From a virus (lineage: Duplodnaviria; Heunggongvirae; Uroviricota; Caudoviricetes), in IMG/VR virus record IMGVR_UViG_2778261352_000001, positions 1,199-65,198 of that record: a stretch of DNA of 64,000 nt. One strand, written 5' to 3'. The notes under the pieces are model-generated. The model was not told the origin of the DNA, did no database searches, and was given only the letters and a program-made list of their open reading frames with translations. Within the stretch, counting starts at the first letter, position 1; each line of letters opens with the position of its first letter. Positions 20,702 through 57,490 of this stretch are shown in pieces. A program made the translations under genes and the position numbers.

Positions 20702-23700
20702 ATGAACAAGCTATCTATGGGGGTGTTTCGCTGTTCAAGTGTCAGCGAAATATTGAAATATATTAGGGCAATAACATCTCACCGAGCGCCGATTAGATAC
20801 GGCGTGGAAAAGGTGGAAGGCAAAAGCTATGACCGACTGCGCCGGGAGGCGAATCAGAAGGCGATAGATTTGCTTAATTCACTGGTGGACGGCGCGACAC
20901 TGACAGATGAACAGCGCCAGATCCTGGCTGGGTACACCGGTGAAGGCGGCATTGGCGGGTCCGTCTCCGAATATTACACACCAAAGCCTATCGCTGAAGG
21001 CGTCTGGGAGATCATGAAGCTCTATGGCGCGGACGTAGGTAACACTCTGGAACCATCGGCGGGCACCGGCGTTTTTAATGAGACAAAACCGGTTGGTACG
21101 GTGATGACCGCGACTGAGATCAGCAGTGTTTCCGGTCGTATAAACCAGCTGTTACATCCGGAAGACAGCGTACAGATTTCCCCGTTCGAACAGCTGGCTA
21201 TAAGCACACCTAACGATTCATTCGACCATGTTGTGGGTAACGTTCCGTTCGGCGGTCGTGATAACACACGCAACATCGATAAGCCTTACGCAGAAGAAAC
21301 GGATATGGGGTCTTACTTCATGCTCCGCATGCTGGACAAGATAAAGCCAGGCGGATTCATGTGTGTGATTGTGCCGCCGTCCATTGTTTCAGGTTCAAAC
21401 ATGAAGCGGTTGCGCCTGCGCCTATCCCGTAAAGCTGAATTTCTTGGTGCCCACCGCTTGCCTACCGGTACTTTTGACGCAAACGGGACCAGTACGGTCG
21501 TTGACGTGGTGCTGATGCGCAAACATCCGGCGGAGATGGCTGAGAAAATCCCCCTGGTGGATGAAGGCACTCTTGAATCGGCAAATGTGCTTTGGCCAAC
21601 GTTTATTTCTGGCAAGTGGTTTGAAAAGGACGGCCGCCGGTTTGTTCATGGCACCCAGGAGAAGGGATTCCAGGGGCGTATTGAGGTTCGTGCCGACGGG
21701 CAGATTGATAACCAGGCTCTTAAAGCGAAGCTGATTCATCGTTTCGAAAGTCGTATCGACTGGTCTTTGCTCGATATGGCTGAACCGTCACCGACAGCAG
21801 ACGTTGTTGGTGAAGGGGAAATGCGCCTGATTAATGGCGTATGGCAAAAATATGCTGGTGGTCGCTGGATTGAAGCTGATGCCGGGAAGGAACTTAAGAT
21901 CGATGCTGCCAGTTATGGCGCGGATAGCTGGGAGGCTCTTCAGCGTAACCTGACTACAACAGAAGGCCGTCTCGGCATGACATTTACCCAGATGGCAAAT
22001 GTCCGCGATAAGTACACCACATCAATCAGCGACGATATGGTGCAGCTGGTGGACTGGATTAACAGCCAGCCTGAAAAATACCGTGAACGCTTGTATCGCG
22101 GGGCGATGATTGGCCGGATGTTAATTGAATATCAGGATATGAAGGCCGCCGGGCATAGTGCTGAACAAATCGAACAGCAGCGCCTTTCCCTGGTATCCCG
22201 TTTGCAGGCAGAGATTGACCGTTTTGGTAACCCCGGTCGCGGTCCGATAGCGAAATTATCGGGGAGCGGTGCGCGCGCCTGGTTTGCTTTCCGTGGTGCA
22301 ATTAAGCTGGATGGCACTATTTCTGACGAGCTGACAGGAAAGCTGGTTACGCATGATTCCAGCGCCAGTTATGACTCCACCAGCTATCAGGACACCCTGC
22401 GTTATCTCTACAGTGATCTCACTCGCGATCCAATCCAGCTCGATGATTTCCGCCTTGCGTTTACCGGCGAACTGCCAGCCAGTGATGACGAGTTGCTTAA
22501 TTTATTGGCTAGCACCCCTGGCATTGCGGTTTCACCGTATGGCGGGATTGTTCCGTTTGCCCGCGCCACCAGCGGCGACATTAACGAGATAGTGGCTCCA
22601 AAACAGGAATTCCTCGCCACGCTCCCCGACGGTCCAGTAAAGAACAACGTCCTTAATCAGCTGGCAGCGATCGAAGAGAAGCGCATCAAGACGCCAGCAG
22701 AGAATATCCGGTTTAAGCTCAATAGCCGTTGGTTTGACCGTTCCGTCATCCTGGAGTTTTTGCAGGAAAACGGCTATCCGGATCTGCGCTATGTGCAGTC
22801 AGTGCAGCTGGAAGGCGACGAAATGGTTTCTGACACCTATCACGGTGGTGATGGTCTGTTCGTCGGACACCGATACGGTGTCGTCCAGCGCAAGGATAAA
22901 GAAACAGGCGAGATCCGCTACGAGTGGGACCGTAAATCAGGTGAAAACGCGACCGGGTTCCCGGCACAGCTGGAAAAGTATCTCAATGGTGCGCGTATCG
23001 GTGGCAAAGATAGCGCGACGGCGAACGGCTACCGCGAGCAGATGGCACTGCTTGAGGACCAGTTCAATAAGTGGATAAAGACACACGATCGCTACGATGA
23101 GCTGGTTGCCAAATACAACGATGTTTTCAATAGCAATATTCCGTATGAACACTCTGGCGATCCGCTTGGGTTGAAGGGATTAAGCGGTAAGCGCCAGCCA
23201 TTTGATTACCAGAATAGCGAGGTGCGACGACTGTCTGAAGATGGGCGCGGCATCCTGGGCTTCGGCACCGGGCTGGGTAAAACGACGACCGCGCTGGCGC
23301 TTGAGGCGTTCAACTATGAGAACGGTCGCTCCACCCGTACTGCGTATGTAGTGCCTAAATCAGTGCTGGAAAACTGGTATTACGAAGCAAAAGAGTTCCT
23401 GAGTGAAGAGGCATTCAGTAACTACCTGTTCGTCGGTCTTGATGTGCTGATGGATGGCGATCAGATTCGCCAGGTGCCGGTACTCGATGAGAACGGTAAA
23501 CCTGTCCTTGGTACTGATGGCACTCCAGTGATGCGTGATGCTCTTAAACTGGCAGATGAAGCCACTATCACGGCGCGAATGAACTCGATCCCGCACTCAA
23601 ATTACCGTGCAGTCGTGTTTACCAAAGAACAATACGCCCGCATTCCGCTACGTGATGACACCGTGGATGAGCATGCACAGGATATGCTTTATGACTTCGT

Positions 23701-26700
23701 TGCCGCCGGGCGCGTAGCCAGCGCAATGGATTCCGATTCCCATCGCAAAGAGGCGGCGCGTCGCCGGGTATTGTCGGAGTATTCAGATACCGGTACCGAA
23801 AAAGCAGAGAAGTATCCGTACTTTGAAGATATGGGCTTCGACAGCGTGATCGCCGACGAAGGCCACAACTACCGCAATAGCTATAAAAATGGTCGCGAAG
23901 CGTCACAGCTGGCCTATCTGCCCACCAGCGCGGTAGCGCAATCGGCGCGAGATATGGCAATCAAAAACGCGTACCTGATGAAAAAGAATGGCGGGCGCGG
24001 ACCGGTTCTCCTGACTGCAACACCAGTCGTTAACACCCCGATCGATGCATACAACATGCTCTCTCATGTTCTGCCGAAGGAATACTGGCAGAAGATGGGG
24101 ATCTACGGTCCTGATGACTTCGTTAAATTCTTCGGCAAGACCAGGCTGGAAACGGTACAGAAAATCAGCGGTGAAGTTGAAGAAAAAATGGCGCTGGTGG
24201 GCTTTGAAAACCTTGATGCGCTGCGCGGTATATTCCATCGCTGGGTAACGCTTAAAACGGCGGAAGACGTTAAGGATACCGTGGAGATCCCGGAGCTGGA
24301 CGAACACCAGCAGGATGCACCACTTACTGAAGAACAACTGGCGGCGTATGAAGAATTGCGTCAGCAGGCGGAAGCGGCAGCCAAAGCCAACAATGGCGTA
24401 ACGTCCTCGGTCAATGAAGACGGTGTGATTGAGCACGAGAAAGCCCGTCCGATCTTCTCAATAATCAGGGATATGGACCGCGTATGTACTGACATGGACC
24501 TGTACTATCGCCGGATCACCTATCGTTTCCTGCCGGAGTACGCCGATGCGGTGCAGCAGCTGGCGGACAGTTTGCCTAAACAAGCCACCAGCGAAGACGA
24601 CGACAGTGATGATTCTATCACGCAGCAATCGCAATACTCCCTGATAGATAAGGGCGAGTTTATTCAGTTGCAGGTTCCGGAAGCGTTCGAGCAGGAAGTG
24701 AATAAGCGCCTGGCCAGGTTTGGCATTGACGAACAGACCGTTACTCACCCCGTTACGCCCAAATACGCGAAGCTGATCGCCACGCTGAAGGAGTTTTTTC
24801 CGGAAGGTAAGCAAATCATCTTCACCGATGAAAAAACGCAGCACCAGAAGCTCAAGCGCATTATCTGCAATGCTCTTAACCTTGAACCTTCAAAGGTGGG
24901 GATCCTGAATGCTCAGACGGTTGCCGAGGCAGGTAAAACCGGTAAGAAACTGAAAGCGGTTAAACCGCCGAAAGAGTTACCGGATGAACCAACAGATGCA
25001 CAGATAGCGAAATACAACGAGCAAATGGCTCTGTATGACGCCTATATCGCGCAGCAAAATGAAATGTCGCTGGGCGGGCTGGAAAAGATTGCTGCCGACT
25101 TCCAGGAGGGCCGGACTCCGATCATCATCTGCAACAAAAAGGCAGAGGTGGGTATCAACCTGCATCGAGGAACGACTGACATCCATCATCTGACGTTGCC
25201 ATGGACACCAGCCAGTATCGCACAGCGTAACGGTCGCGGTGCCCGAGTTGGCTCCAACCGTGCAAGCGTTCGCGTTCACTACTACTGCGGCAAGGGTTCT
25301 TTCGATGAATATCGACTGAAGACGCTGAAGCGTAAAGCAGGCTGGATCTCCGATATCCTCCGTTCAGATAAGTCAGAAATGGAGAACGCCGACGCCAATG
25401 ATATGATCGAAATGCAGATGTATACCGCGAAGGATGACGGCGAACGTCTGGCAATGATGCAGGTTCAAATGGATAAGGCGAAAGCCGCGCAACGCGCTCG
25501 CCAGAAAGAACAGGCTACTATCGACATTCAGAACTACATCAAGGCGCAGCACGCAGCTGGTGAGGATGTGGAGGTACTTACCGCTGAATTAGAGCGAAGC
25601 AAAGCGGAACTTGAAAAGACCACCGCCGAGGTAGCTAAATTCAAACAGGCGGTAATGGCCAAAGCAGCTGATAACGCAGACTGGAAAGCCCGCTGGGGTA
25701 GCGTCCATCACACAGACCGTACGTTGTTAGCACAGTATCGCGCGTCGTTGAAAAGCGCCATTCAGCGCAAGGCTAATATCTCTCAAGCCATCTCCCGCTA
25801 TGAGAAATTATTGAACCGTACTCAGAAGGCCGCGACGGATATCAAACGCCTGCGCCCGCTGGTGGAGGATGCAATAAATAAAGGCATTCTGGATGTTGAT
25901 CCTGACCTGGTTAACCATGCGAGTGAGTTCCTTGTTATCGGCGATCGCTCATGGCGTGTAGGCCAATACTACGATTGTGCCGGTGATATCGTTCGCATTA
26001 AGTCGCTGGACTTCGACAGCCAGCGCGCAGACGTGGAGATCATCTTTACCTTAAAAGGCACCAAATCGGGTAACTGGGATGTGAAGACGCTGGATAAACA
26101 GGTTGATGTAACTCCCGATGAAGATGCTGTTATACAGAAAATCAGTGGTGGCGTCTCCATCGCCGGGATTAACGACATCATTTCCTGTGACGATTTCTAC
26201 CGTTTCCAGCAGCGCGGCATGATCAAAATCACTGACTCGTACGGCATCCAGACTACAGAGTCAGGCTACAGCATTGATTTTGTTGGTACCTATACTGATC
26301 CACTGAAGCATGCGGTTTATCCGGATCGCCGTGACGGAGCGCTGAAGTCGTCAATTGCAAAATGGGTGCTTGGTATGATGTCGGAAGGGAATAACCGCCA
26401 GGTCCGTTTGGCAGAAGCATTCCTGGTTGAACTGTTTGGTTCCAATTATGGCGATGTAATCGCGTCATACGGAGATACGCTATCCCCTGAAGCAATTCAG
26501 GAGAACATAGCGGATGCGATCGCAAAAATGCCGGAGAAAACAAGCCAGGGGGCTACTCGTAACGGGGATTCAGAACTTGAAGTCACCAATGCCATTTTCG
26601 GTACCAATGAGTTCCGGGCGTCAGATTATGAGATCACCACAGCACAGTTTGGCACCATTGGCATTTACAGTAATAAAGACGAGATCAAGCAGGCAATGGA

Positions 26701-27469
26701 CGCAGCAAGTGCGCGCATTGCAGCAGAACGGAAAGCCAATCTGAATCATGCAGTTGCCGCGCTGACTCAATCGTGGGTAACAGCAATCAGGGAGGCCGCC
26801 ACCACAGGAAAAATCACACCGGCAATTGCGGATGTCGTAAACGACGGCTCTAAATTTATGGATGCCTATAAAATGGATGCGGTGCAGTTGCCATCAGCCT
26901 ATGGCCAACTCAGCTATCGCATGACCTACAACCTGGTATCAATGTTTTCCGACCTTGCCATCCTTGGGCTGGTGGACCTTAACGAGGTTACGCCGGAATT
27001 GCTCAGCATGCGCAAGAACCATGTGGAGATATTGCACAGAATTAACACGGTACTTTCCGGGCGCACCGATGAAGAGAAACAGGCAGACGCTGATCGGATA
27101 AACCTGGCCCTTGGCAACATCACGGAGGAAGAAATTGCCGCCAGAAACGAGAAACAAGAAGAGTTATCATCAATACAGGGTGATGCCACCAGCATAGCTC
27201 AGTCTCTTGGTCTGAATTATCGCGTATCCACCGCCGACCTGAAGATGATGTACGCACCAAAATTCGCCGCTGGCGAGGTATTTGGGCTTCAGGAGGCGTC
27301 CGGCATGAAAGGCATTCTTTTCCGTGCGAAAGACGCAATCAAGGCGAAATTCGGCGCTCGCTGGCTGCCAGCGAAGGCAAAGAACAGCGATTTCCCGGGT
27401 AACTGGTGGATTATCGAGACAAAACACAACGTGGCGGACGTTCTGACCGTCATCCAACAATACGCATAA
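20702..27469 (+). CDS. darB: DarB antirestriction protein (N6-adenine methyltransferase plus helicase domains)
   Basis: 2255 aa; NVPFGG MTase motif, Walker A GFGTGLGKTT, DEGHNY box; size equals P1 DarB. Confidence 0.85.
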   Translation: MNKLSMGVFRCSSVSEILKYIRAITSHRAPIRYGVEKVEGKSYDRLRREANQKAIDLLNSLVDGATLTDEQRQILAGYTGEGGIGGSVSEYYTPKPIAEGVWEIMKLYGADVGNTLEPSAGTGVFNETKPVGTVMTATEISSVSGRINQLLHPEDSVQISPFEQLAISTPNDSFDHVVGNVPFGGRDNTRNIDKPYAEETDMGSYFMLRMLDKIKPGGFMCVIVPPSIVSGSNMKRLRLRLSRKAEFLGAHRLPTGTFDANGTSTVVDVVLMRKHPAEMAEKIPLVDEGTLESANVLWPTFISGKWFEKDGRRFVHGTQEKGFQGRIEVRADGQIDNQALKAKLIHRFESRIDWSLLDMAEPSPTADVVGEGEMRLINGVWQKYAGGRWIEADAGKELKIDAASYGADSWEALQRNLTTTEGRLGMTFTQMANVRDKYTTSISDDMVQLVDWINSQPEKYRERLYRGAMIGRMLIEYQDMKAAGHSAEQIEQQRLSLVSRLQAEIDRFGNPGRGPIAKLSGSGARAWFAFRGAIKLDGTISDELTGKLVTHDSSASYDSTSYQDTLRYLYSDLTRDPIQLDDFRLAFTGELPASDDELLNLLASTPGIAVSPYGGIVPFARATSGDINEIVAPKQEFLATLPDGPVKNNVLNQLAAIEEKRIKTPAENIRFKLNSRWFDRSVILEFLQENGYPDLRYVQSVQLEGDEMVSDTYHGGDGLFVGHRYGVVQRKDKETGEIRYEWDRKSGENATGFPAQLEKYLNGARIGGKDSATANGYREQMALLEDQFNKWIKTHDRYDELVAKYNDVFNSNIPYEHSGDPLGLKGLSGKRQPFDYQNSEVRRLSEDGRGILGFGTGLGKTTTALALEAFNYENGRSTRTAYVVPKSVLENWYYEAKEFLSEEAFSNYLFVGLDVLMDGDQIRQVPVLDENGKPVLGTDGTPVMRDALKLADEATITARMNSIPHSNYRAVVFTKEQYARIPLRDDTVDEHAQDMLYDFVAAGRVASAMDSDSHRKEAARRRVLSEYSDTGTEKAEKYPYFEDMGFDSVIADEGHNYRNSYKNGREASQLAYLPTSAVAQSARDMAIKNAYLMKKNGGRGPVLLTATPVVNTPIDAYNMLSHVLPKEYWQKMGIYGPDDFVKFFGKTRLETVQKISGEVEEKMALVGFENLDALRGIFHRWVTLKTAEDVKDTVEIPELDEHQQDAPLTEEQLAAYEELRQQAEAAAKANNGVTSSVNEDGVIEHEKARPIFSIIRDMDRVCTDMDLYYRRITYRFLPEYADAVQQLADSLPKQATSEDDDSDDSITQQSQYSLIDKGEFIQLQVPEAFEQEVNKRLARFGIDEQTVTHPVTPKYAKLIATLKEFFPEGKQIIFTDEKTQHQKLKRIICNALNLEPSKVGILNAQTVAEAGKTGKKLKAVKPPKELPDEPTDAQIAKYNEQMALYDAYIAQQNEMSLGGLEKIAADFQEGRTPIIICNKKAEVGINLHRGTTDIHHLTLPWTPASIAQRNGRGARVGSNRASVRVHYYCGKGSFDEYRLKTLKRKAGWISDILRSDKSEMENADANDMIEMQMYTAKDDGERLAMMQVQMDKAKAAQRARQKEQATIDIQNYIKAQHAAGEDVEVLTAELERSKAELEKTTAEVAKFKQAVMAKAADNADWKARWGSVHHTDRTLLAQYRASLKSAIQRKANISQAISRYEKLLNRTQKAATDIKRLRPLVEDAINKGILDVDPDLVNHASEFLVIGDRSWRVGQYYDCAGDIVRIKSLDFDSQRADVEIIFTLKGTKSGNWDVKTLDKQVDVTPDEDAVIQKISGGVSIAGINDIISCDDFYRFQQRGMIKITDSYGIQTTESGYSIDFVGTYTDPLKHAVYPDRRDGALKSSIAKWVLGMMSEGNNRQVRLAEAFLVELFGSNYGDVIASYGDTLSPEAIQENIADAIAKMPEKTSQGATRNGDSELEVTNAIFGTNEFRASDYEITTAQFGTIGIYSNKDEIKQAMDAASARIAAERKANLNHAVAALTQSWVTAIREAATTGKITPAIADVVNDGSKFMDAYKMDAVQLPSAYGQLSYRMTYNLVSMFSDLAILGLVDLNEVTPELLSMRKNHVEILHRINTVLSGRTDEEKQADADRINLALGNITEEEIAARNEKQEELSSIQGDATSIAQSLGLNYRVSTADLKMMYAPKFAAGEVFGLQEASGMKGILFRAKDAIKAKFGARWLPAKAKNSDFPGNWWIIETKHNVADVLTVIQQYA

Positions 27470-27502: not shown

Positions 27503-27943
27503 ATGGCCACACTATCTGATACAATAAAACCGAATAAAACATATCTTGAGGCGGTACTGCGTACGGCGTTGTTAGGAAAGACAGAAGACGAATACGTTGA
27601 TTTCTTCCTGTCAGGGCTACGCGGGCGATTACTGAAAAATCCCCGCCTGTACCGCAGCTATGGTCCATACTGGCCGGAAATTAAAAAATTATTACTGGAG
27701 CGCGGTTATGGTAATTTCGGTCGTCTCGTTGACCGTGACGTTCGCAAAATTTACCGTTATGACCGCCCGGCGCTAACACTCATAGCCGCGACGCTCTACA
27801 GCCAGGAGCGTTTTGATAATGGTCAGATATACTCAGCCTGGCACTTACTGCCAGTGCCTGAAGAAGTTGACGACCAGGACTATGAGTTTGAGTCTTACGA
27901 TTTGGAAGTTGAAGCCTTGGCACAGGCTGGAGAGAAAACTTGA
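27503..27943 (+). CDS. ulx: Ulx-like protein
   Basis: 146 aa, directly downstream of darB, ATGA-coupled to next gene. Confidence 0.4.
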   Translation: MATLSDTIKPNKTYLEAVLRTALLGKTEDEYVDFFLSGLRGRLLKNPRLYRSYGPYWPEIKKLLLERGYGNFGRLVDRDVRKIYRYDRPALTLIAATLYSQERFDNGQIYSAWHLLPVPEEVDDQDYEFESYDLEVEALAQAGEKT

Positions 27944-28188
27944 AAAAGCGATACTACACAGTAAAGCATGGGACGCTACGAGCATTACAAGAGTTTGCTG
28001 ACAAGCATAACGTTGAGGTGCGCAGGGAAGGGGGAAGTAAAGCTCTGCGCATGTACCGTCCGGACGGGAAATGGCGTACGGTCGTCGATTTCAAAACTAA
28101 CAGTGTTCCCCAGGGTGTCCGCGATCGGGCATTCGAAGAATGGGAGCAGATCATCATAGATAACGCATTGCTTCTCAATGCTGATTGA
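27940..28188 (+). CDS. lxc: Lxc-like small protein
   Basis: 82 aa, position and size as P1 lxc. Confidence 0.4.
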   Translation: MKKRYYTVKHGTLRALQEFADKHNVEVRREGGSKALRMYRPDGKWRTVVDFKTNSVPQGVRDRAFEEWEQIIIDNALLLNAD

Positions 28189-28270
28189 GTTTTGTTGGCC
28201 CGGTTTGCACCGGGCGTTTCACAAACAATCAACTGGTTTGTAATTCCTGCGGCGAGATGGATTATTTATA

Positions 28271-28879
28271 TTATTGTGGTGCCGATGATGCGATAGCCTG
28301 CATGATGTTATCAATATCGTTATCGTTCAGCATGAATATAGGTACACCATTAGAGTTTGCATTTTTTTCAGTGCTCATCAAACAAAGCCCCTCATACATG
28401 CCGCGCGTTTTTTTGAAATTGGCGACTGATGGAGTGGTGTAATTTCCTTTAAAGTGCATTCCGGCTGATTCATAAAAAGGAACCAAATCAGACTGGCAAA
28501 TCAAAGCAACCTCATTTGGAAATGCAAGTATTTCTGCCAGTATATTACTTCCAAGTCCATTACCACGATATTGCTCATATACATATATTTTGTGACAGTA
28601 CAACGGAAAATTACCCGATGGATGTCCGAAGATTAAGGCGTATCCGAACAAGTTTTCTTCATTAGTAAAGCCCATAATGCGCAAATGACCGGCTCGGTAA
28701 CACTCTTCAAATACGTTAATTATGTAGTTTCTCGCTGCTTTCAGCTCCTCTTCTGTCGCAAACATCATCAACCCCATAAGCGATGGAGTATAGGCCAGAT
28801 CCTGAAGAATCCCATTAGCTTCATTTTCGAAAATAAGCGGTAAGCGCGGTTCAATTTCATTTGCCGAGGTATTAGACAT
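28271..28879 (-). CDS. GNAT-family N-acetyltransferase
   Basis: Motif A QYRGNGLGSNIL; gene and upstream region markedly AT-rich relative to flanks. Confidence 0.7.
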   Translation of the reverse strand: MSNTSANEIEPRLPLIFENEANGILQDLAYTPSLMGLMMFATEEELKAARNYIINVFEECYRAGHLRIMGFTNEENLFGYALIFGHPSGNFPLYCHKIYVYEQYRGNGLGSNILAEILAFPNEVALICQSDLVPFYESAGMHFKGNYTTPSVANFKKTRGMYEGLCLMSTEKNANSNGVPIFMLNDNDIDNIMQAIASSAPQ

Positions 28880-28885
28880 AGTATG

Positions 28886-28913
28886 ATGAGTCCTTTGTTT
28901 TCAAAGGACTCAT
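28886..28913. promoter_or_regulatory. perfect inverted repeat overlapping the predicted SD of the GNAT gene
   Basis: ATGAGTCCTTTG-tttt-CAAAGGACTCAT, 7-34 nt upstream of GNAT start. Confidence 0.4.
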
Positions 28914-29077
28914 GTTATCAGTGATAATCGTTTGTTGTAATACTGTTGATAAAATAATTTTCTATTATGTAAGCAAGCTCATTTTTATGACGGGTAATGC
29001 AAAAAAATAGAATCAAAAAACTAAAAAAATAATAATTCATAGGGTTTTACACCATCAAAAGTCCCCGCCATAAATTA

Positions 29078-29788
29078 TTAGAAATAATTACGCGTGCCTG
29101 TTAATACCCCTTTCGGCACTTTTTTTTGTTCTAGTGTCTGGGTGCCCAGAATTATGTTAATCAGAGGGCTTAGTAACGATGGTTCCTGGCGTGCCTCAAC
29201 TTCTCCAGCCATTGCCCTGATGTAGTCGGCGCTGGCAACGTTGTTGTATTCCGTCGCAAAGCAACATAGTAACGTCAGAACATGCTCTGTCGTTATTTCG
29301 CTCCAGTTGATGTTGAAAAATTCATCGCCTTTTTTATCGTGTTCGGAATCGAAGATGCTTTGGTGGAGGATGTATTTGCCGGATTCCTTGCGCGGTAACT
29401 TGATTGCTTTCTGGCGTTCCAGCTCCTTATAAATCTGCATTGCCTCAATTAGTACCGGCCTGCCGTTCATGAAGGGATCGCGCAACCTTACACGCTGGCC
29501 AACTCGACCAGTAATAAAGCTGTTTTCCTCTTCCACCAGCACGATAAAACCCTTTTCCTCTTTTTCTCGCAATTCGCGCAGCAGCTGGAGTTCCATATCG
29601 CGGCGGCGTTCAGGGTAGCTGGTCCGCTCAGCCATTATCAGCTCGTTATTGATCCATGCAGCAGTCATTGACGCCGGTTTGCCGACGCTCATCGAAACAA
29701 CGCATATTTTCTTATCCATAGCGCCCCTACAAAAAAGAAAAGCCACCAGCGGCGGCTTAGCAATACAACTGAAGGTAGCGCCCGGCAC
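29078..29788 (-). CDS. hypothetical protein (Mat position in P1 order)
   Basis: 236 aa ORF (possible start at internal MDKK, 29719). Confidence 0.4.
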   Translation of the reverse strand: MPGATFSCIAKPPLVAFLFCRGAMDKKICVVSMSVGKPASMTAAWINNELIMAERTSYPERRRDMELQLLRELREKEEKGFIVLVEEENSFITGRVGQRVRLRDPFMNGRPVLIEAMQIYKELERQKAIKLPRKESGKYILHQSIFDSEHDKKGDEFFNINWSEITTEHVLTLLCCFATEYNNVASADYIRAMAGEVEARQEPSLLSPLINIILGTQTLEQKKVPKGVLTGTRNYF

Positions 29789-29907
29789 TCAGACTGTGCC
29801 GTCCATGGAATATTTGAAAAGGGATCCATCCGTACCGGGCGTGTGATGATTCTGACTGAAGTCACTTGTCAGTTGTCAATCATTTATCATTAAAAATAAT
29901 ATATTTA

Positions 29908-30468
29908 TTAGTGCATGATGTTTGCCATCTCATAGGCGTCAGCCAGTAACTCCATCTCTGACTTGTTCAGCAGGGTGAATTCTTTCTTGCCTCCAACCAC
30001 ACCATCGGCATGAACAGGGACCAGCCAGGGGTATTTTGCTCTTACTTCAGCCGGTGCTGCATGCTGGTGGTGCCATCTACAAAGTGGCAATTGCTTTTTA
30101 TGACAACCCGGCGCGGTACGACCGGCGATATGGTGCAGAGACACCTCATTAGATATTACTCCATGCATATAGCAGGCAATGCAGGGGAGAGCGCCAAGAG
30201 CATTGGCGATGCGCCGTTCCTCCGCCGTTGGTGTTCTCCCCTTCAAGCCACGAGATTTTATTTTTACCGCGCTTTTCCGCGTTTTGCTGGCTGGTGGGCG
30301 CTCTTTCTGTTTAGCGATACGGCGGTCGATAGTATCCCGCATTTTCTGATATTGAGATTCTCGCCAGACCGGATCAGCCAACTTTTCCCGTTGCCGAGCG
30401 ATCGCTCGTTCTCTGGCTGCCTTCTGCCACTTGCGGCACTGTTCAATTTTTTGTTCGATTGTTTTCAT
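29908..30468 (-). CDS. ref: Ref HNH endonuclease (recombination enhancement function)
   Basis: 186 aa, basic N-terminus, HNH-like Cys/His cluster (..CIACYMHG..HH..CHKK..C..WHH..). Confidence 0.8.
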   Translation of the reverse strand: MKTIEQKIEQCRKWQKAARERAIARQREKLADPVWRESQYQKMRDTIDRRIAKQKERPPASKTRKSAVKIKSRGLKGRTPTAEERRIANALGALPCIACYMHGVISNEVSLHHIAGRTAPGCHKKQLPLCRWHHQHAAPAEVRAKYPWLVPVHADGVVGGKKEFTLLNKSEMELLADAYEMANIMH

Positions 30469-31077: not shown

Positions 31078-32109
31078 CTAATCGCCATCTTCCAGCAGGC
31101 GCACCATTGCCCCCGTTTCACTATCCAGATTACGGATATAGTTCATGACAATATTTACGTTGGTCCAGCCACCAGCTTGCATGATCTCCGGTATTGAAAC
31201 TCCGGCGCGGGCCATATCTCGCGCGGCTCCGACACGGGCACTGTGTCCAGACCAAGCCAGGTACCTCTGGCCAGAGTCATCCTTAGCCCCGTAAATCAAT
31301 CGGTGAGTTGCTTCAAAAATCCCTTCCAGGGCGCGAGTTGATAGCTGGCTGGTGGATGATGGCGAGGCAACACCATTTTTTCTGACCCGGCAAAACAAGT
31401 AGTTATTCGGATCATCAGCCACACCAGAGACAGAAATCCATCGCTCGACCAGTTTAGTTACCCCCAGGCTAAGCGCCTTCTCTACACCTGCGGTGCTAAC
31501 CAGCGTTTTCGTTCTGCCAATATGGATTAACATTCTCCCACCGTCAGTACGTGAGATATCTTTAACCCTGATCCTGGCAATTTCGGCTATACGTAACAGG
31601 GTGTTATAAGCAATCCCCAGAAATGCCAGATTACGTATATCCTGGCAGCGATCGCTATTTTCCATGAGTGAACGAACCTGGTCGAAATCAGTGCGTTCGA
31701 ACGCTAGTGCCTGTTTTGCACGTTCACCGGCATCAACGTTTTCTTTTCGGATCCGCCGCATGACCAGTGAAACAGCATTGCTGTCACTTGGTCGTGGCAG
31801 CCCGGACCGACGATGAAGCATGTTTAGCTGGCCCAAATGTTGCTGGATAGTTTTTACTGCCAGACCGCGCGCCTGAAGATATAGAAGATAATCGCGAACA
31901 TCTTCAGGTTCTGCGGGAAACCATTTCCGGTTATTCAACTTGCACCATGCCGCCCATGACCGGCAAACGGACAGAAGCATTTTCCAGGTATGCTCAGAAA
32001 ACGCCTGGCGATCCCTGAACATGTCCATCAGGTTCTTGCGAACCTCATCACTCGTTGCATCGACCGGTAATGCAGGCAAATTTTGGTGTACGGTCAGTAA
32101 ATTGGACAT
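31078..32109 (-). CDS. cre: Cre tyrosine recombinase
   Basis: 343 aa, MSNLLTVHQNLPALPVDATSDEVRKNL.. near-identical to canonical Cre. Confidence 0.98.
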   Translation of the reverse strand: MSNLLTVHQNLPALPVDATSDEVRKNLMDMFRDRQAFSEHTWKMLLSVCRSWAAWCKLNNRKWFPAEPEDVRDYLLYLQARGLAVKTIQQHLGQLNMLHRRSGLPRPSDSNAVSLVMRRIRKENVDAGERAKQALAFERTDFDQVRSLMENSDRCQDIRNLAFLGIAYNTLLRIAEIARIRVKDISRTDGGRMLIHIGRTKTLVSTAGVEKALSLGVTKLVERWISVSGVADDPNNYLFCRVRKNGVASPSSTSQLSTRALEGIFEATHRLIYGAKDDSGQRYLAWSGHSARVGAARDMARAGVSIPEIMQAGGWTNVNIVMNYIRNLDSETGAMVRLLEDGD

Positions 32110-32527: not shown

Positions 32528-32561
32528 ATAACTTCGTATAATGTATGCTATACGAAGTTAT
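32528..32561. other. loxP site
   Basis: Exact ATAACTTCGTATA-ATGTATGC-TATACGAAGTTAT. Confidence 0.98.
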
Positions 32562-46476: not shown

Positions 46477-47154
46477 CTACACCATCACTTGCCGGGTACG
46501 TCTCCGGCGAGGGCTTCCACCTCCGTATGCTTTTCGGCGCACCGCGCCCTGACTGCAATTCGGTAACAGGGGATGCATAACCCTGGCTTCCAGCGTGATT
46601 AGCGCCTTCAGCATGACGGGATATACCCGTAAATTCGTGGAACTGTACCCAAAGTGCTGTTAAGCACCGCTGTTACGCTGAAAAGAAGACGCAACAGGAA
46701 AGGACGCTGACCAACAGATGGCCCCTTCTCGTTCATCTGGTTAATCACACCAGCGCCCTTACCTGTTGTGCCTCCCCGTTCCCTAATACACAGACGGGGA
46801 CACTCTGTGGTCGATTTTTTGACGGGGGACGACTCATACCCCGTGGCGTCTGGCTTCTTAGGCCGCTACCATCATCAGATCATCGTTTGCATTTACTTTA
46901 ATGGTCAGTTTCTAAACCGCCGCAAAGTCGCTAACCATGACGAAAACCCTGAAAAAAACGCCCACCCGAAGATGGGCAAACTGGAAGCTCGTAACGCACT
47001 TCGGTGTTGCCACTTAGGCGCATGGTCAACCTGGCAACTCGGCGTCATGAGGGGGAAGGAGTCACTACCCCGCCATACTTGCCGCCGCGCCTGTCGCGGC
47101 TAACAGCTAAATCGCTCTATAAATCACGATTCATTGAGGCGATATTACACTAAT

Positions 47155-47171
47155 AAATTTATTAGAGCAAT
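47155..47171. promoter_or_regulatory. C1 operator, exact 17/17 consensus (reverse orientation)
   Basis: AAATTTATTAGAGCAAT overlapping dmt stop codon. Confidence 0.75.
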
Positions 47172-49426
47172 ATCGCCATAACGTCATGAGCAACACCACG
47201 AGTGTCTCCCTTACAAGACACAGAACGTCTGGCAAAGAGAGGTTCCACTCTGAAGCCTCTGTCCTGATAAAGTTCTCTGATGTTTGGCGCGCCACTGTTA
47301 GTAATGAGTACCTTTGCACCTCGGCGATGAGCATCCGTCAACAGAGACACCAGGCGTTTTTGCTCTTCAAACTTAAAGTCATGACCGGAATAGTTCGTGA
47401 ATCCCTCTGTATTTGGAAGCGGTTCATACGGCGGATCACAGAAGATGACATCTCCTTCTCCGGCAGCTTCAATCACCGCAGCAAAATCACCACATACAAA
47501 CTCAGAACGCCCTTCCGCACCGAGGAAGGCTTCCATCTCCTGTAATGGGAAATACGGAGTTTTATACTTCCCATAACCGACATTGAACTCACCGGCCTGG
47601 TTGTAACGCGTCAATCCGTTAAAACAATGTCGGTTCAGGAACAAAAACGCCGCTGCGCGATGTAAATCATCATAGACTTGTTTGTTAAACGCATTCCGTA
47701 CTGCCAGGTATCCTTCCTGTGTGTTGTAGTCCTGGAAAAACCGATGCGCCAGTGTGATAAGTGAATGCGCCTCGCGTTGCAGAGTCTTGTAAAAGTTAAT
47801 CAGGTCAGCATTCACATCATTTAGCAGATTTTCCTGGTATCCGGCATTCGTGAAGACAGCTCCGCCACCGACAAAAGGTTCGATCAGGCGCTTCCCTTCT
47901 GGCAAATAGCGAAAGATTTGTTCCAGAACACCAAATTTTCCACCAGCCCATTTGAATATGGACCGTTCGAATTCTGCCGCTGGTTTAACTTTTCGCTCTT
48001 TTGTTTCACTTCCTTCTTTCTGCCGACATACGGCCTTAGTAATTCGATCGCCAATCCAGCGCATTACTGGTATTGCCATACTATTGCCGATCGCTTTGTA
48101 ACGCGGTCCGTCAGCTGCAAGCATCGCGGCCTCTTCTTCGCTTAAATCTGGATAGTGATTGTGCAGATATGCCAGTTCATCTGAATTAACTTTTTTACGC
48201 TTTTCCGTAGGGATCAACGTATGCCCATCAGGAAAACCTTGAAGTCTCTCACATTCGACAGGGGTAAGACGGCGGACAGCTACTTCTTCGTTTCTTACTT
48301 CATAGCAAACAGCAGTTGGATTTTGAGCCATTAGAGATGGTGAAGTATTCTTAGTTGCTGCATGTTGTGTACCACTCATACGCTCAGGAAAAGCCAATGT
48401 AACAAGATGCTCATGGCTTTCTTGCTCACGCGCCCGCAATGTACCATGCCCTTCTGACCAAAAACCTGCTCCAGTGCTGCTAAAAACGGCAAGGTCAGTG
48501 GCATCTTTAAAGTCTCTTGCCTTTACTGTCGATGCGGTTTCATCGTCAATATATTCCCCAAATGCCGCCATCCTGAAACCGTTTACGGCTTTCGTCGATT
48601 TCATATCGGGGGACATGCCAGCGTGTAGGCATGGATTTAGGCTTTCGCCACTGATTGCAGCGCCATTTGCAGTAATGGCGGAAGCGATTTCCTTCTTTTT
48701 TCGGCTCGGCGCAATATTCCGGCGCACGCCTTCGAACTCAAAAAGTACCGTTGCGGGATCGAGGTCTGTTCGAGCACTTGCGACAACAAACACGCGTCGG
48801 CGTCGTTGTGCCACTCCGAAGTATTGGGCATCAAGGATTCTCCAGGCCACCTTTCGCTGCGGTCCATAAATACAACCACACTGCGGCCACTTTGGAGCAT
48901 GGCAACCGGTTTTGACATCCCACCGCCAGAACGTGTTACTTTTTCGTGATTCAGGTCGATCACCAGGTTCGAATGGCGCATCTTCTCCAGCCAATCCGGC
49001 AAGGAAACATCCGAACGCGTTGTCTGCTGATGACAGGACTCCTGGGACATTTTCCCAGACGATAACTGTCGGTTTGAGGAAGGACTCAGACCGTTTGTCG
49101 TCAATTGCATTTGCAAGCTCCACATACTTCAAAGTTAGCGCGCCGCGTTCATCATCAAGCCCACCACGTAAGCCCGCGATACTGAATGCCTGACAAGGCG
49201 TACCCCCGACGAGCACATCAGGGGCTTCAATTTCTCCGGCCTGGACTTTTTGGGCGAGTTTTGTCATGTCGCCAAGGTTCGCGACATGGGGCCAGCGGTG
49301 CGCAAGAACGGCAGATGGAAAAGACTCGATTTCAGCAAACCACGCCGGACGCATACCCAACGGTTCCCAGGCAATACTCGCGGCTTCAATTCCACTGCAA
49401 ACAGATCCATAGCACAGCTCTTTCAC
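47162..49426 (-). CDS. dmt: bifunctional DNA methyltransferase (C5-cytosine plus Dam-like N6-adenine)
   Basis: 754 aa; [12 protein letters not shown] and ENV motifs N-terminal, DPPY motif C-terminal. Confidence 0.85.
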
Positions 49427-57289: not shown

Positions 57290-57376
57290 TTCGCCATTCA
57301 AATTTCACCATTAAATTACTGTTTTTAAAGTAAATACTTCTAAAATTTCAAGGTGAAATCGCCACGATTTCACCTT
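57290..57376. other. parS centromere (Box A ATTTCAC / Box B TCGCCA flanking AT-rich IHF region)
   Basis: TCGCCATTCAAATTTCAC .. TGAAATCGCCACGATTTCAC. Confidence 0.8.
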
Positions 57377-57490
57377 GGATTTTACCTTCCTCCCCTCCTC
57401 CCGAAAAAAATAAAAAAATTGCTTGTCACGAGAAAGTCAACAAGTGACTTTCAATAAAATCTCTTCCGAAAAGGGATTCACACAAGTGCC

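Follow-up and report, generated by a model that had tools for sequence, protein, structure and literature searches.

As judged from its sequence, the window, that is, the whole 64,000-nt stretch of DNA analysed here, is a P1-like phage-plasmid with a GNAT cassette in the place of res/mod between mat and ulx (Table 1). The same slot holds EcoPI res/mod in P1 and a gene of the RelA/SpoT family in SJ46, and res-mod has been described as one of eight regions of high variability in P1-like phage-plasmids (PMC9603915). Since the homology to P1 and P7 ends at about 28190 and about 29133, the cassette carries its own AT-rich upstream spacer of 198 nt, which runs from the stop codon of mat to the GNAT ATG; the hairpin with which this study is concerned lies 165 nt beyond the mat stop. 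The intact mat gene probably starts at an internal ATG (29719) of the listed ORF. In P1, Pmat is repressed by C1 and LPmat is a late promoter, so that RNA entering the cassette from mat would be lytic-phase RNA. A simple scan called no canonical intrinsic terminator in the mat-GNAT spacer of lineage A, the type found in the window, or of lineage B (see below), and Rho-dependent or weak intrinsic termination in this AT-rich and U-rich spacer could have been missed by the scan. The RelA/SpoT gene of SJ46, another cargo gene of the slot, has no SD-occluding stem, and in SJ46 a terminator-like hairpin lies directly after mat. We also considered the palindrome as a recombination junction, a possibility rejected because the cassette boundaries are more than 200 nt away.

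Table 1. Features of the GNAT locus and its surroundings, in positions of the window
Feature	Position	Strand	Remarks
DarB	20702-27469	+	
Two small ORFs	27503-27943 and 27940-28188	+	named lxc / ulx, order varies among related records
GNAT cassette limits (approximate)	28190-29133	.	homology to P1 and P7 breaks there
GNAT family N-acetyltransferase gene	28271-28879	-	202 aa; cargo of the mat-ulx variable slot; Pfam GNAT domains
GNAT start codon ATG	28877-28879	-	ATG and N-terminus align in all lineages
Perfect palindrome ATGAGTCCTTTG-tttt-CAAAGGACTCAT (12+4+12)	28886-28913	.	repeat search and hairpin statistics
3' arm in mRNA sense, CAAAGGACUCAU	28886-28897	-	SD inside
Shine-Dalgarno (SD) AAGGA	28891-28895	-	11 nt 5' of ATG; 7-9 nt in relatives
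5' arm in mRNA sense, AUGAGUCCUUUG	28902-28913	-	anti-SD arm
Predicted start zone of GNAT's own transcript	28902-28907	-	5-10 nt past the -10, inside the 5' arm
Candidate extended -10, TGATAACAT (TGnTAACAT)	28912-28920	-	conserved in 10 leaders down to 56% protein identity
Alternative promoter-like site TTGATG-18-TATTAT	29029-29058	-	top rough-PWM score in lineage A only
mat (maturation control) ORF	29078-29788	-	co-directional with GNAT, immediately upstream
Omat (C1 operator), Pmat and late promoter LPmat	29849-29917	-	100% identical to P1, annotated in AF234172
Ref	29908-30468	-	
Cre	31078-32109	-	
loxP	32528-32561		

The GNAT protein matches PDB 9s30_A (E 2e-132), and the structure of this GNAT, PDB 9s30, has recently been crystallised. 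A literature search found no functional study of this GNAT in P1-like elements or of PDB 9s30. Searches with PADLOC and NCBIfam gave no match, PHROGs returned a family of unknown function only, and no Rfam family matches the GNAT leader. The protein is acidic (pI 4.8), with N- and C-terminal extensions of pI 4.1 and 4.9 and the GNAT domain as its only domain. Its family is small, comprising 23 clusters at 90% identity. Lineage A, to which the window belongs, consists of copies that are 97-100% identical and is present on at least 19 plasmids of PLSDB, in viral and metagenome contigs and, plasmid-borne every time, in 12 of the 5426 complete E. coli genomes. Lineage B is found on P1-like plasmids of E. 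albertii and of E. coli UTME-12 (about 83-84% aa identity), lineage C in Serratia (about 74% aa identity), and further copies occur in Klebsiella (IncFII-plasmid), Enterobacter mori, Serratia marcescens (56%) and Pseudomonas. The leaders of these relatives were retrieved by a protein-guided locus search; a flank-anchored scan of viral contigs with a degenerate DNA pattern yielded about 119 mostly chance matches, which were discarded.

Two sublineages of lineage A, both bearing the hairpin, differ in their coding sequences by 13-14 nt, of which 6-7 are nonsynonymous (dN/dS 0.23-0.26). In the comparison with a dN/dS of 0.23, there are 6 nonsynonymous and 7 synonymous changes, the neutral expectation being about 10 and 3 (binomial p about 0.02, by approximate arithmetic on small numbers). 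Similar ratios are obtained within lineage B (0.41), within lineage C (0.25-0.35) and between lineages (0.09-0.17). These substitution patterns show purifying selection on the GNAT gene within the hairpin-bearing lineage, and hence a gene that is presumably still expressed.

The palindrome and its folding

The initial annotation had described a perfect hairpin 7-34 nt upstream of the GNAT start codon, and this description holds. The repeat search returned two arms of 12 nt each (28886-28897 and 28902-28913), complementary at 12 of 12 positions (100%) around a 4-nt loop, with the ATG read from 28879 to 28877. The likely SD, AAGGA, had been placed within one arm, where it is indeed found, in the arm that lies 3' in the mRNA; the loop has to be corrected, as it is AAAA, and not UUUU, in the mRNA. 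In the direction of the gene, the order is thus ...CACTGATAAC-ATGAGTCCTTTG-aaaa-CAAAGGACTCAT-catact-ATG, or, written as RNA, ...CACUGAUAAC-AUGAGUCCUUUG-AAAA-CAAAGGACUCAU-CAUACU-AUG.

The window contains three distinct perfect hairpins with arms of at least 12 bp and loops of 3-10 nt, namely that of loxP, one at about 57350 and the one in the GNAT leader; the expected number is 0.075 (mean per dinucleotide-shuffled window) or 0.03 (analytic expectation). When the upstream 75 nt were shuffled 2000 times, a complement to the SD region as long as the real one never arose. The palindrome in the GNAT leader is no chance match. The 66-nt leader RNA folds with -18.6 kcal/mol (z = -5.4), and the hairpin by itself with -18.7 kcal/mol at 30 °C, -16.6 at 37 °C and -15.0 at 42 °C; in silico, it is still the MFE structure at 80 °C. 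In most lineage A isolates, the last position of the stem is C, not T, which leaves an 11-bp stem of -16.1 kcal/mol. This terminal T/C is the sole polymorphism of the 28 nt within the lineage, and a stem that is invariant but for its terminal pair gives no covariation evidence.

The leader across lineages

Comparison of the orthologous leaders indicates that the palindrome is a recent feature of one lineage. The long stem occurs in lineage A only, and the sister lineages (about 84%, 74% and 56% aa identity) are without the palindrome. In lineages B and C the leader is short, rich in A and unremarkable, with its SD at a good distance from the ATG, reading CATCAG--CTCAAAAAACGAAGGAG-7nt-ATG in B and CATCAGGCTTTGAAAAAATAACGAAGGA-8nt-ATG in C. 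The AAGG/AAGGA block is kept in all the enterobacterial leaders compared, and its distance from the ATG in lineage A, 11 nt, is less favourable than the 7-9 nt of the relatives.

The leader of lineage C contains a 5-bp quasi-palindrome (CTTTG...C(G/A)AAG). Lineage A differs by at least 8 clustered changes, every one of them towards perfect symmetry; they include a pair of insertions, TC in one arm and CTC in the other. Clustered symmetric changes with paired indels are the signature of templated (quasi-palindrome) mutation. The perfect symmetry probably arose, as far as can be read from the Serratia-type leaders in which an older quasi-palindrome, CTTTG-A-rich-C(A/G)AAG, is visible, by template-switch correction of this imperfect repeat. 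Quasi-palindrome template-switch mutagenesis was reportedly described by Ripley in 1982 and by the Lovett laboratory, and the case at hand is like it in that the inverted repeat of the relatives is imperfect, that of the GNAT leader is perfect, and the changes between them are clustered and symmetric. A single template-switch event is nevertheless insufficient, since both arms differ from the outgroups, and template switching would account for the origin of the palindrome but not for a function.

Candidate promoter and accessibility of the SD

In an alignment of 10 enterobacterial leaders, the non-coding columns that never vary read T, G, n, T, A, n, n, A, T, to which the SD purines are to be added. 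The first of these blocks corresponds to the candidate extended -10, in which TG at -15/-14, T-12, A-11 and T-7 are kept and variation falls on the weakly constrained -10/-9; the hexamer is TAACAT, with TAATAT in Klebsiella and TACCAT in one metagenome copy as variants. The -35 is poor in every lineage, and the absence of a good -35 is consistent with an extended -10. With a rough sigma70 PWM, TGnTAACAT comes first or second in 7 of the 10 leaders; it takes fourth place in the leader designated L141 and ranks below that in L148. In lineage A, it is outscored by TTGATG-18-TATTAT, a site not conserved in the other lineages; an mRNA started there would hold the whole hairpin.

The last two bases of the conserved -10 (AT) are the first two of the 5' arm. 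Owing to this overlap, GNAT's own transcript should begin within the arm and be without the hairpin; its +1 would lie at about 28905, 7 nt past the hexamer and so inside the 5' arm, and the comparative data make a +1 inside the hairpin the likeliest state. In lineage B the +7 position is occupied by an A, from which an unstructured, A-rich leader runs on, with AAGGAG 7 nt from the ATG. In lineage A the predicted +1 is a pyrimidine, which counts against the fold-back inhibition discussed below.

We assessed the accessibility of the SD by partition-function folding of RNAs with different 5' ends, taking the probability that the SD is unpaired, P(SD unpaired), as the measure. When the RNA begins upstream and includes both arms, this probability is 0.000-0.001 at 25, 37 and 42 °C alike. 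Sequestration of the SD in RNA, as the initial annotation had predicted, is thus found for RNAs with both arms, in which the SD is essentially always paired. RNAs begun 1-4 nt past TAACAT retain a stem of 7-10 bp and have a P(SD unpaired) below 0.04, a value that rises to 0.20 for a start at +5, 0.38 at +6 and 0.55-0.70 at +7 to +10. A fold of the 221-nt spacer retains the hairpin and shows no stem followed by a U-tract. As accessibility of the SD is set by the 5' end of the RNA, the importance of the hairpin hinges on where transcription starts.

Readings of the hairpin

The best reading of these results, which we put forward tentatively and at somewhat less than even confidence, is an IS10-style fold-back inhibition of read-through transcripts. 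The full 12-bp hairpin would form only in RNAs begun upstream of the palindrome, which would be mat read-through transcripts made from the C1-repressed Pmat and from LPmat in the lytic phase. In such RNAs the SD would be locked in the stem of -16.6 kcal/mol, and GNAT would go untranslated. The gene's own extended -10 (TGATAACAT) would start its RNA about 7 nt later, within the 5' arm, and the mRNA from this promoter, being without the anti-SD arm, would be translatable. What recommends this mechanism is the geometry of the arms, one on the -10/+1 and the other on the SD, the co-directional lytic operon upstream, the apparent lack of a terminator and a gene that appears to be expressed. Both the occurrence of read-through from mat into GNAT and insulation as the selected function of the hairpin are presumed here. 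The purifying selection on GNAT is of importance in this regard, as it implies that a lock of -16.6 kcal/mol on the SD is not silencing the gene and that some of the mRNA is presumably without the lock.

A passage of PMC13181058, citing Davis, Simons and Kleckner (1985), states that the translation signals of IS10 tnp are sequestered in secondary structure. The GNAT leader is comparable to IS10/Tn10 in that the ribosome-binding region of the gene is paired with a segment lying upstream, the gene's own start is predicted inside or after the pairing segment, so that only external RNA would be translationally dead, and the gene is mobile cargo behind a foreign transcription unit. By fold-back inhibition, externally initiated transcripts of IS10/Tn10 are kept from making transposase, and the pIN start is said to lie within the stem, reportedly as described by Davis, Simons and Kleckner in Cell in 1985; similar RBS-occluding structures are reported for IS50 and IS3. 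The differences lie in the gene, an acetyltransferase in a phage-plasmid slot rather than a transposase behind a terminal inverted repeat, in the stem, which is short, local, perfect and confined to one shallow lineage, and in the start site, which is here a predicted one. The cassette also has something of the phage morons, cargo genes that in the classical case come between a promoter and a terminator: GNAT stands alone, has a conserved promoter-like element of its own and is inserted amid phage operons, in a region known to vary. Unlike in morons, a lock on the RBS may insulate it in place of the terminator.

Among the alternatives to fold-back inhibition, the palindrome could be a neutral by-product with no selected role, created by template switching in the ancestor of lineage A and tolerated, either because GNAT's own mRNA starts inside the palindrome or because the level of expression matters little. 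We regard this as a real possibility, though a rather unlikely one. It would fit a feature confined to one shallow lineage, with the imperfect precursor CTTTG-A-rich-C(G/A)AAGG held by sister lineages, in which the clustered changes, paired insertions included, all favour symmetry, the SD-ATG spacing has worsened and the only polymorphism is the terminal pair of the stem. Against it stand the two altered arms, which call for more than one event, the fact that the 5' arm falls on the -10/+1 and the 3' arm on the SD, exactly the fold-back geometry, and the persistence of the palindrome, undecayed over a dS of about 0.06, though only about 1.6 changes would be expected. Should transcription instead start upstream, at TTGATG-18-TATTAT or at the mat promoters, all GNAT mRNA would carry the hairpin and the yield would be constitutively damped to a very low level, unless, as in the regulated unfolding suggested by the initial annotation, the stem is opened by a helicase, an sRNA or RNase processing; even taken jointly, these two variants seem unlikely to us. 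The upstream site scores highest of the sigma70 candidates in lineage A, every long RNA has its SD fully paired, and the spacing of 11 nt would weaken initiation further. In lineages B and C, however, this upstream site is not conserved, whereas TGnTAACAT is; there is no sign of a partner RNA or of a competing structure, the hairpin being kept in the spacer fold; and the gene is under purifying selection despite an expected loss of translation by many orders of magnitude. As in the MS2 coat-gene hairpins, a local stem holds the SD and its stability should set the rate of initiation. Work by de Smit and van Duin in 1990 on that series is said to show that stems this stable cut translation by many orders of magnitude. 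Unlike the MS2 series, the GNAT stem at -16.6 kcal/mol is far beyond the tunable range and would act as an off switch; this is at odds with the purifying selection unless some GNAT mRNAs are without the 5' arm.

The palindrome might also act at the DNA level, as an operator, centred about 6-7 bp past the predicted +1, at which a dimeric repressor of the host or the phage blocks the promoter. A perfect 12-bp dyad overlapping the inferred -10/+1 occupies the classical position of an operator, and lineage B has a different dyad (GCTGAT-AAC-ATCAGC) centred on the same -10. We nonetheless consider an operator improbable. No regulator gene is present in the cassette; a 40-codon spacer ORF (28918-29040), which might have encoded an unrecognised regulator or antitoxin, was rejected as such because poly-T tracts of varying length shift its frame in 7 of 9 isolates. 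The half-site has 17 matches (with up to 2 mismatches) in the 64-kb window, where 16.7 are expected, and no second copy. The dyad sequence is not kept by the orthologous promoters and is unlike the P1 C1 operator and the Lpa -22 box annotated in P1, and comparison by eye revealed no convincing match to Fur, CRP, IHF, C1 or Lpa sites within it. Autoregulation through such an operator, as had been proposed in the initial annotation, is unsupported, since GNAT is acidic and without a DNA-binding domain and the half-site is unrepeated; moreover, the same protein family exists in other lineages without the palindrome. A role as a 3'-end element of the mat transcript, either a terminator or an exonuclease-blocking hairpin, is very improbable. 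It would make sense of the first stable hairpin 3' of mat in a spacer without a canonical terminator, but no U-tract follows the stem on either strand (CAUACUAUG on the minus, GUUAUCAG on the plus), the terminator scan makes no call on the hairpin, which is 165 nt past the mat stop and borders on the GNAT ATG, and SJ46 has its terminator-like hairpin directly after mat. Least credible of all, and scarcely worth entertaining, is an RNA thermometer melting at host temperature, the thermosensor of the initial annotation. In RNA thermometers such as fourU and ROSE, the stem is short and made imperfect by mismatches or G-U pairs, melts at 30-42 °C and is conserved among orthologues. The GNAT leader has the superficially fourU-like trait of a U-rich anti-SD (UCCUUUG) that pairs with AGGA in a hairpin just 5' of the start codon. 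Its 12-bp stem is, by contrast, perfect, non-melting (folded to 80 °C in silico, with SD pairing flat between 25 and 42 °C), absent from the orthologues and without an Rfam match, and hence it is not a thermometer. Coupling to a uORF was likewise rejected: the 13-codon ORF ATGAGTCC...TATGTCTAA that overlaps the GNAT ATG occurs in lineage A only, being absent in B and C, has no SD, and has its ATG within the stem and the -10.

RBS-occluding hairpins and insulation by fold-back are textbook knowledge; their use by a phage-plasmid cargo gene would be new. If fold-back inhibition is the true explanation, an acquired gene is kept translationally apart from phage late transcription without a terminator, a small example of cargo insulation whose principle is already in synthetic-biology use. 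GNAT (PDB 9s30) would then be made in the lysogen and not during lytic growth, which helps to guess its role. If the palindrome is a template-switch scar only, it is a clean natural case of quasi-palindrome correction beside a gene start. Neither outcome alters current understanding. As a more general and doubtful suggestion, phage-plasmid cargo downstream of strong lytic promoters may evolve IS-like RBS locks that restrict translation to mRNA from its own promoter, in the lysogenic, plasmid state, and deny it to late read-through RNA; lineage A, with its perfect local hairpin, and lineage B would then have solved the problem independently in one and the same P1 slot. In lineage B, where the gene likewise follows mat, a distant anti-SD (CUCCUUC) that can pair with GAAGGAG is located upstream of the same -10. 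This anti-SD is barely beyond chance (p about 0.05) and amounts to a hint of convergence, not evidence; in the long RNA of lineage B, P(SD unpaired) is 0.00.

The GNAT protein and its distribution

The GNAT protein encoded in the window is essentially identical to PDB 9s30_A (E 2e-132); no paper on this protein was found in the literature search. It belongs to PHROG 10454, a family of unknown function, and searches of PADLOC and NCBIfam gave no match. The family is small, comprising 23 clusters, and its members occur as solitary cargo genes in several settings: adjoining the IncFII repA in Klebsiella plasmids, in chromosomal islands of Serratia and Enterobacter, where one lies close to a NACHT-like gene, and in Pseudomonas. 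Truncated or frameshifted copies also exist, among them the gene of NZ_CP148287, which carries a 1-nt deletion, and clusters P0012, P0014 and P0015, of 159-182 aa; the gene is thus lost on occasion, despite overall purifying selection.

Reading frames and leaders around the GNAT cassette

Upstream of the GNAT gene, the mat gene of the window shows a 1-nt deletion near codon 35 with respect to the annotated 250-aa Mat of P1, and therefore the P1 start codon (29829) opens a dead-end frame. The intact 213-aa form, starting at the internal ATG, is annotated in the RefSeq entries of relatives. Either the P1 start has been over-extended, or mat is N-terminally shortened in the window. The spacer between mat and GNAT contains three poly-T tracts, whose lengths vary (6-7, 6 and 7-9 T) among isolates that are otherwise 97-100% identical, and as a consequence of this variation a spurious 40-codon hydrophobic ORF is made and broken. 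A promoter-like site on the plus strand starts within the palindrome that covers the GNAT Shine-Dalgarno (SD) sequence and is directed antisense into the 3' end of mat. In lineage B, the P1-like plasmids of E. albertii and E. coli UTME-12, the site is not conserved.

The leader of lineage B (L011, L001 and L002) holds a nested dyad, CTCCTTC-9nt-GCTGAT-AAC-ATCAGC-9nt-GAAGGAG, centred on the same candidate extended -10 that is common to the enterobacterial GNAT leaders compared. In its outer arms, an upstream anti-SD pairs with the SD, with marginal statistical support (p ~0.05). In Salmonella phage SJ46 (L153), the mat-ulx slot is occupied by a RelA/SpoT-family cargo gene, also co-directional with mat. 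No SD-occluding stem was found at this gene; a perfect 9-bp hairpin immediately 3' of mat, followed by a T-rich stretch, is terminator-like.

Coordinates of the features described (window positions unless a locus is named)
Feature	Position	Strand	Detail
GNAT gene	28271-28879	-	
Promoter-like site	28900-28928	+	TTCAAA-17-GATAAT; sequence scan
Poly-T tracts	28990-29035		mat-GNAT spacer
mat ORF	29078-29788	-	intact frame of 213 aa from internal ATG 29719
Dead-end frame from P1 mat start	29689-29865	-	listed as 58-aa ORF
Lineage B nested dyad	L011 2950-3000		
SJ46 hairpin	L153 2300-2345	-	9 bp; ATGGGTATG-tttcatttt-CATACCCAT
Tandem array	2600-6010		seven units of ~480 bp
Inverted repeat near array	1554, 3038, 4517, 5867		CCCGTTGG(T/C)G-27 nt-C(A/G)CCAACGGG
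Overlapping palindrome	47138-47177		GGCGATATTACACTAATAAATT / AATTTATTAGAGCAATATCGCC
Long near-perfect inverted repeat	57343-57383		AAATTTCAAGGTGAAATCG / CGATTTCACCTTGGATTTT; perfect core of 12-13 bp

Other repeats and palindromes in the window

The tandem units have diverged (72-84% identity), and most of them hold an ORF of ~155 aa on the minus strand. A conserved block of 51 nt, with dyad symmetry inside it (GCCCT..ATTAAAT..AGGGC), occurs in every unit; the region looks like a paralogous gene array. The overlapping palindrome carries on one strand a C1-operator-like sequence, ATTGCTCTAATAAATT, and is probably a bivalent C1 operator. The long inverted repeat bears what we take to be a likeness to the ParB box-A repeats of P1 parS.
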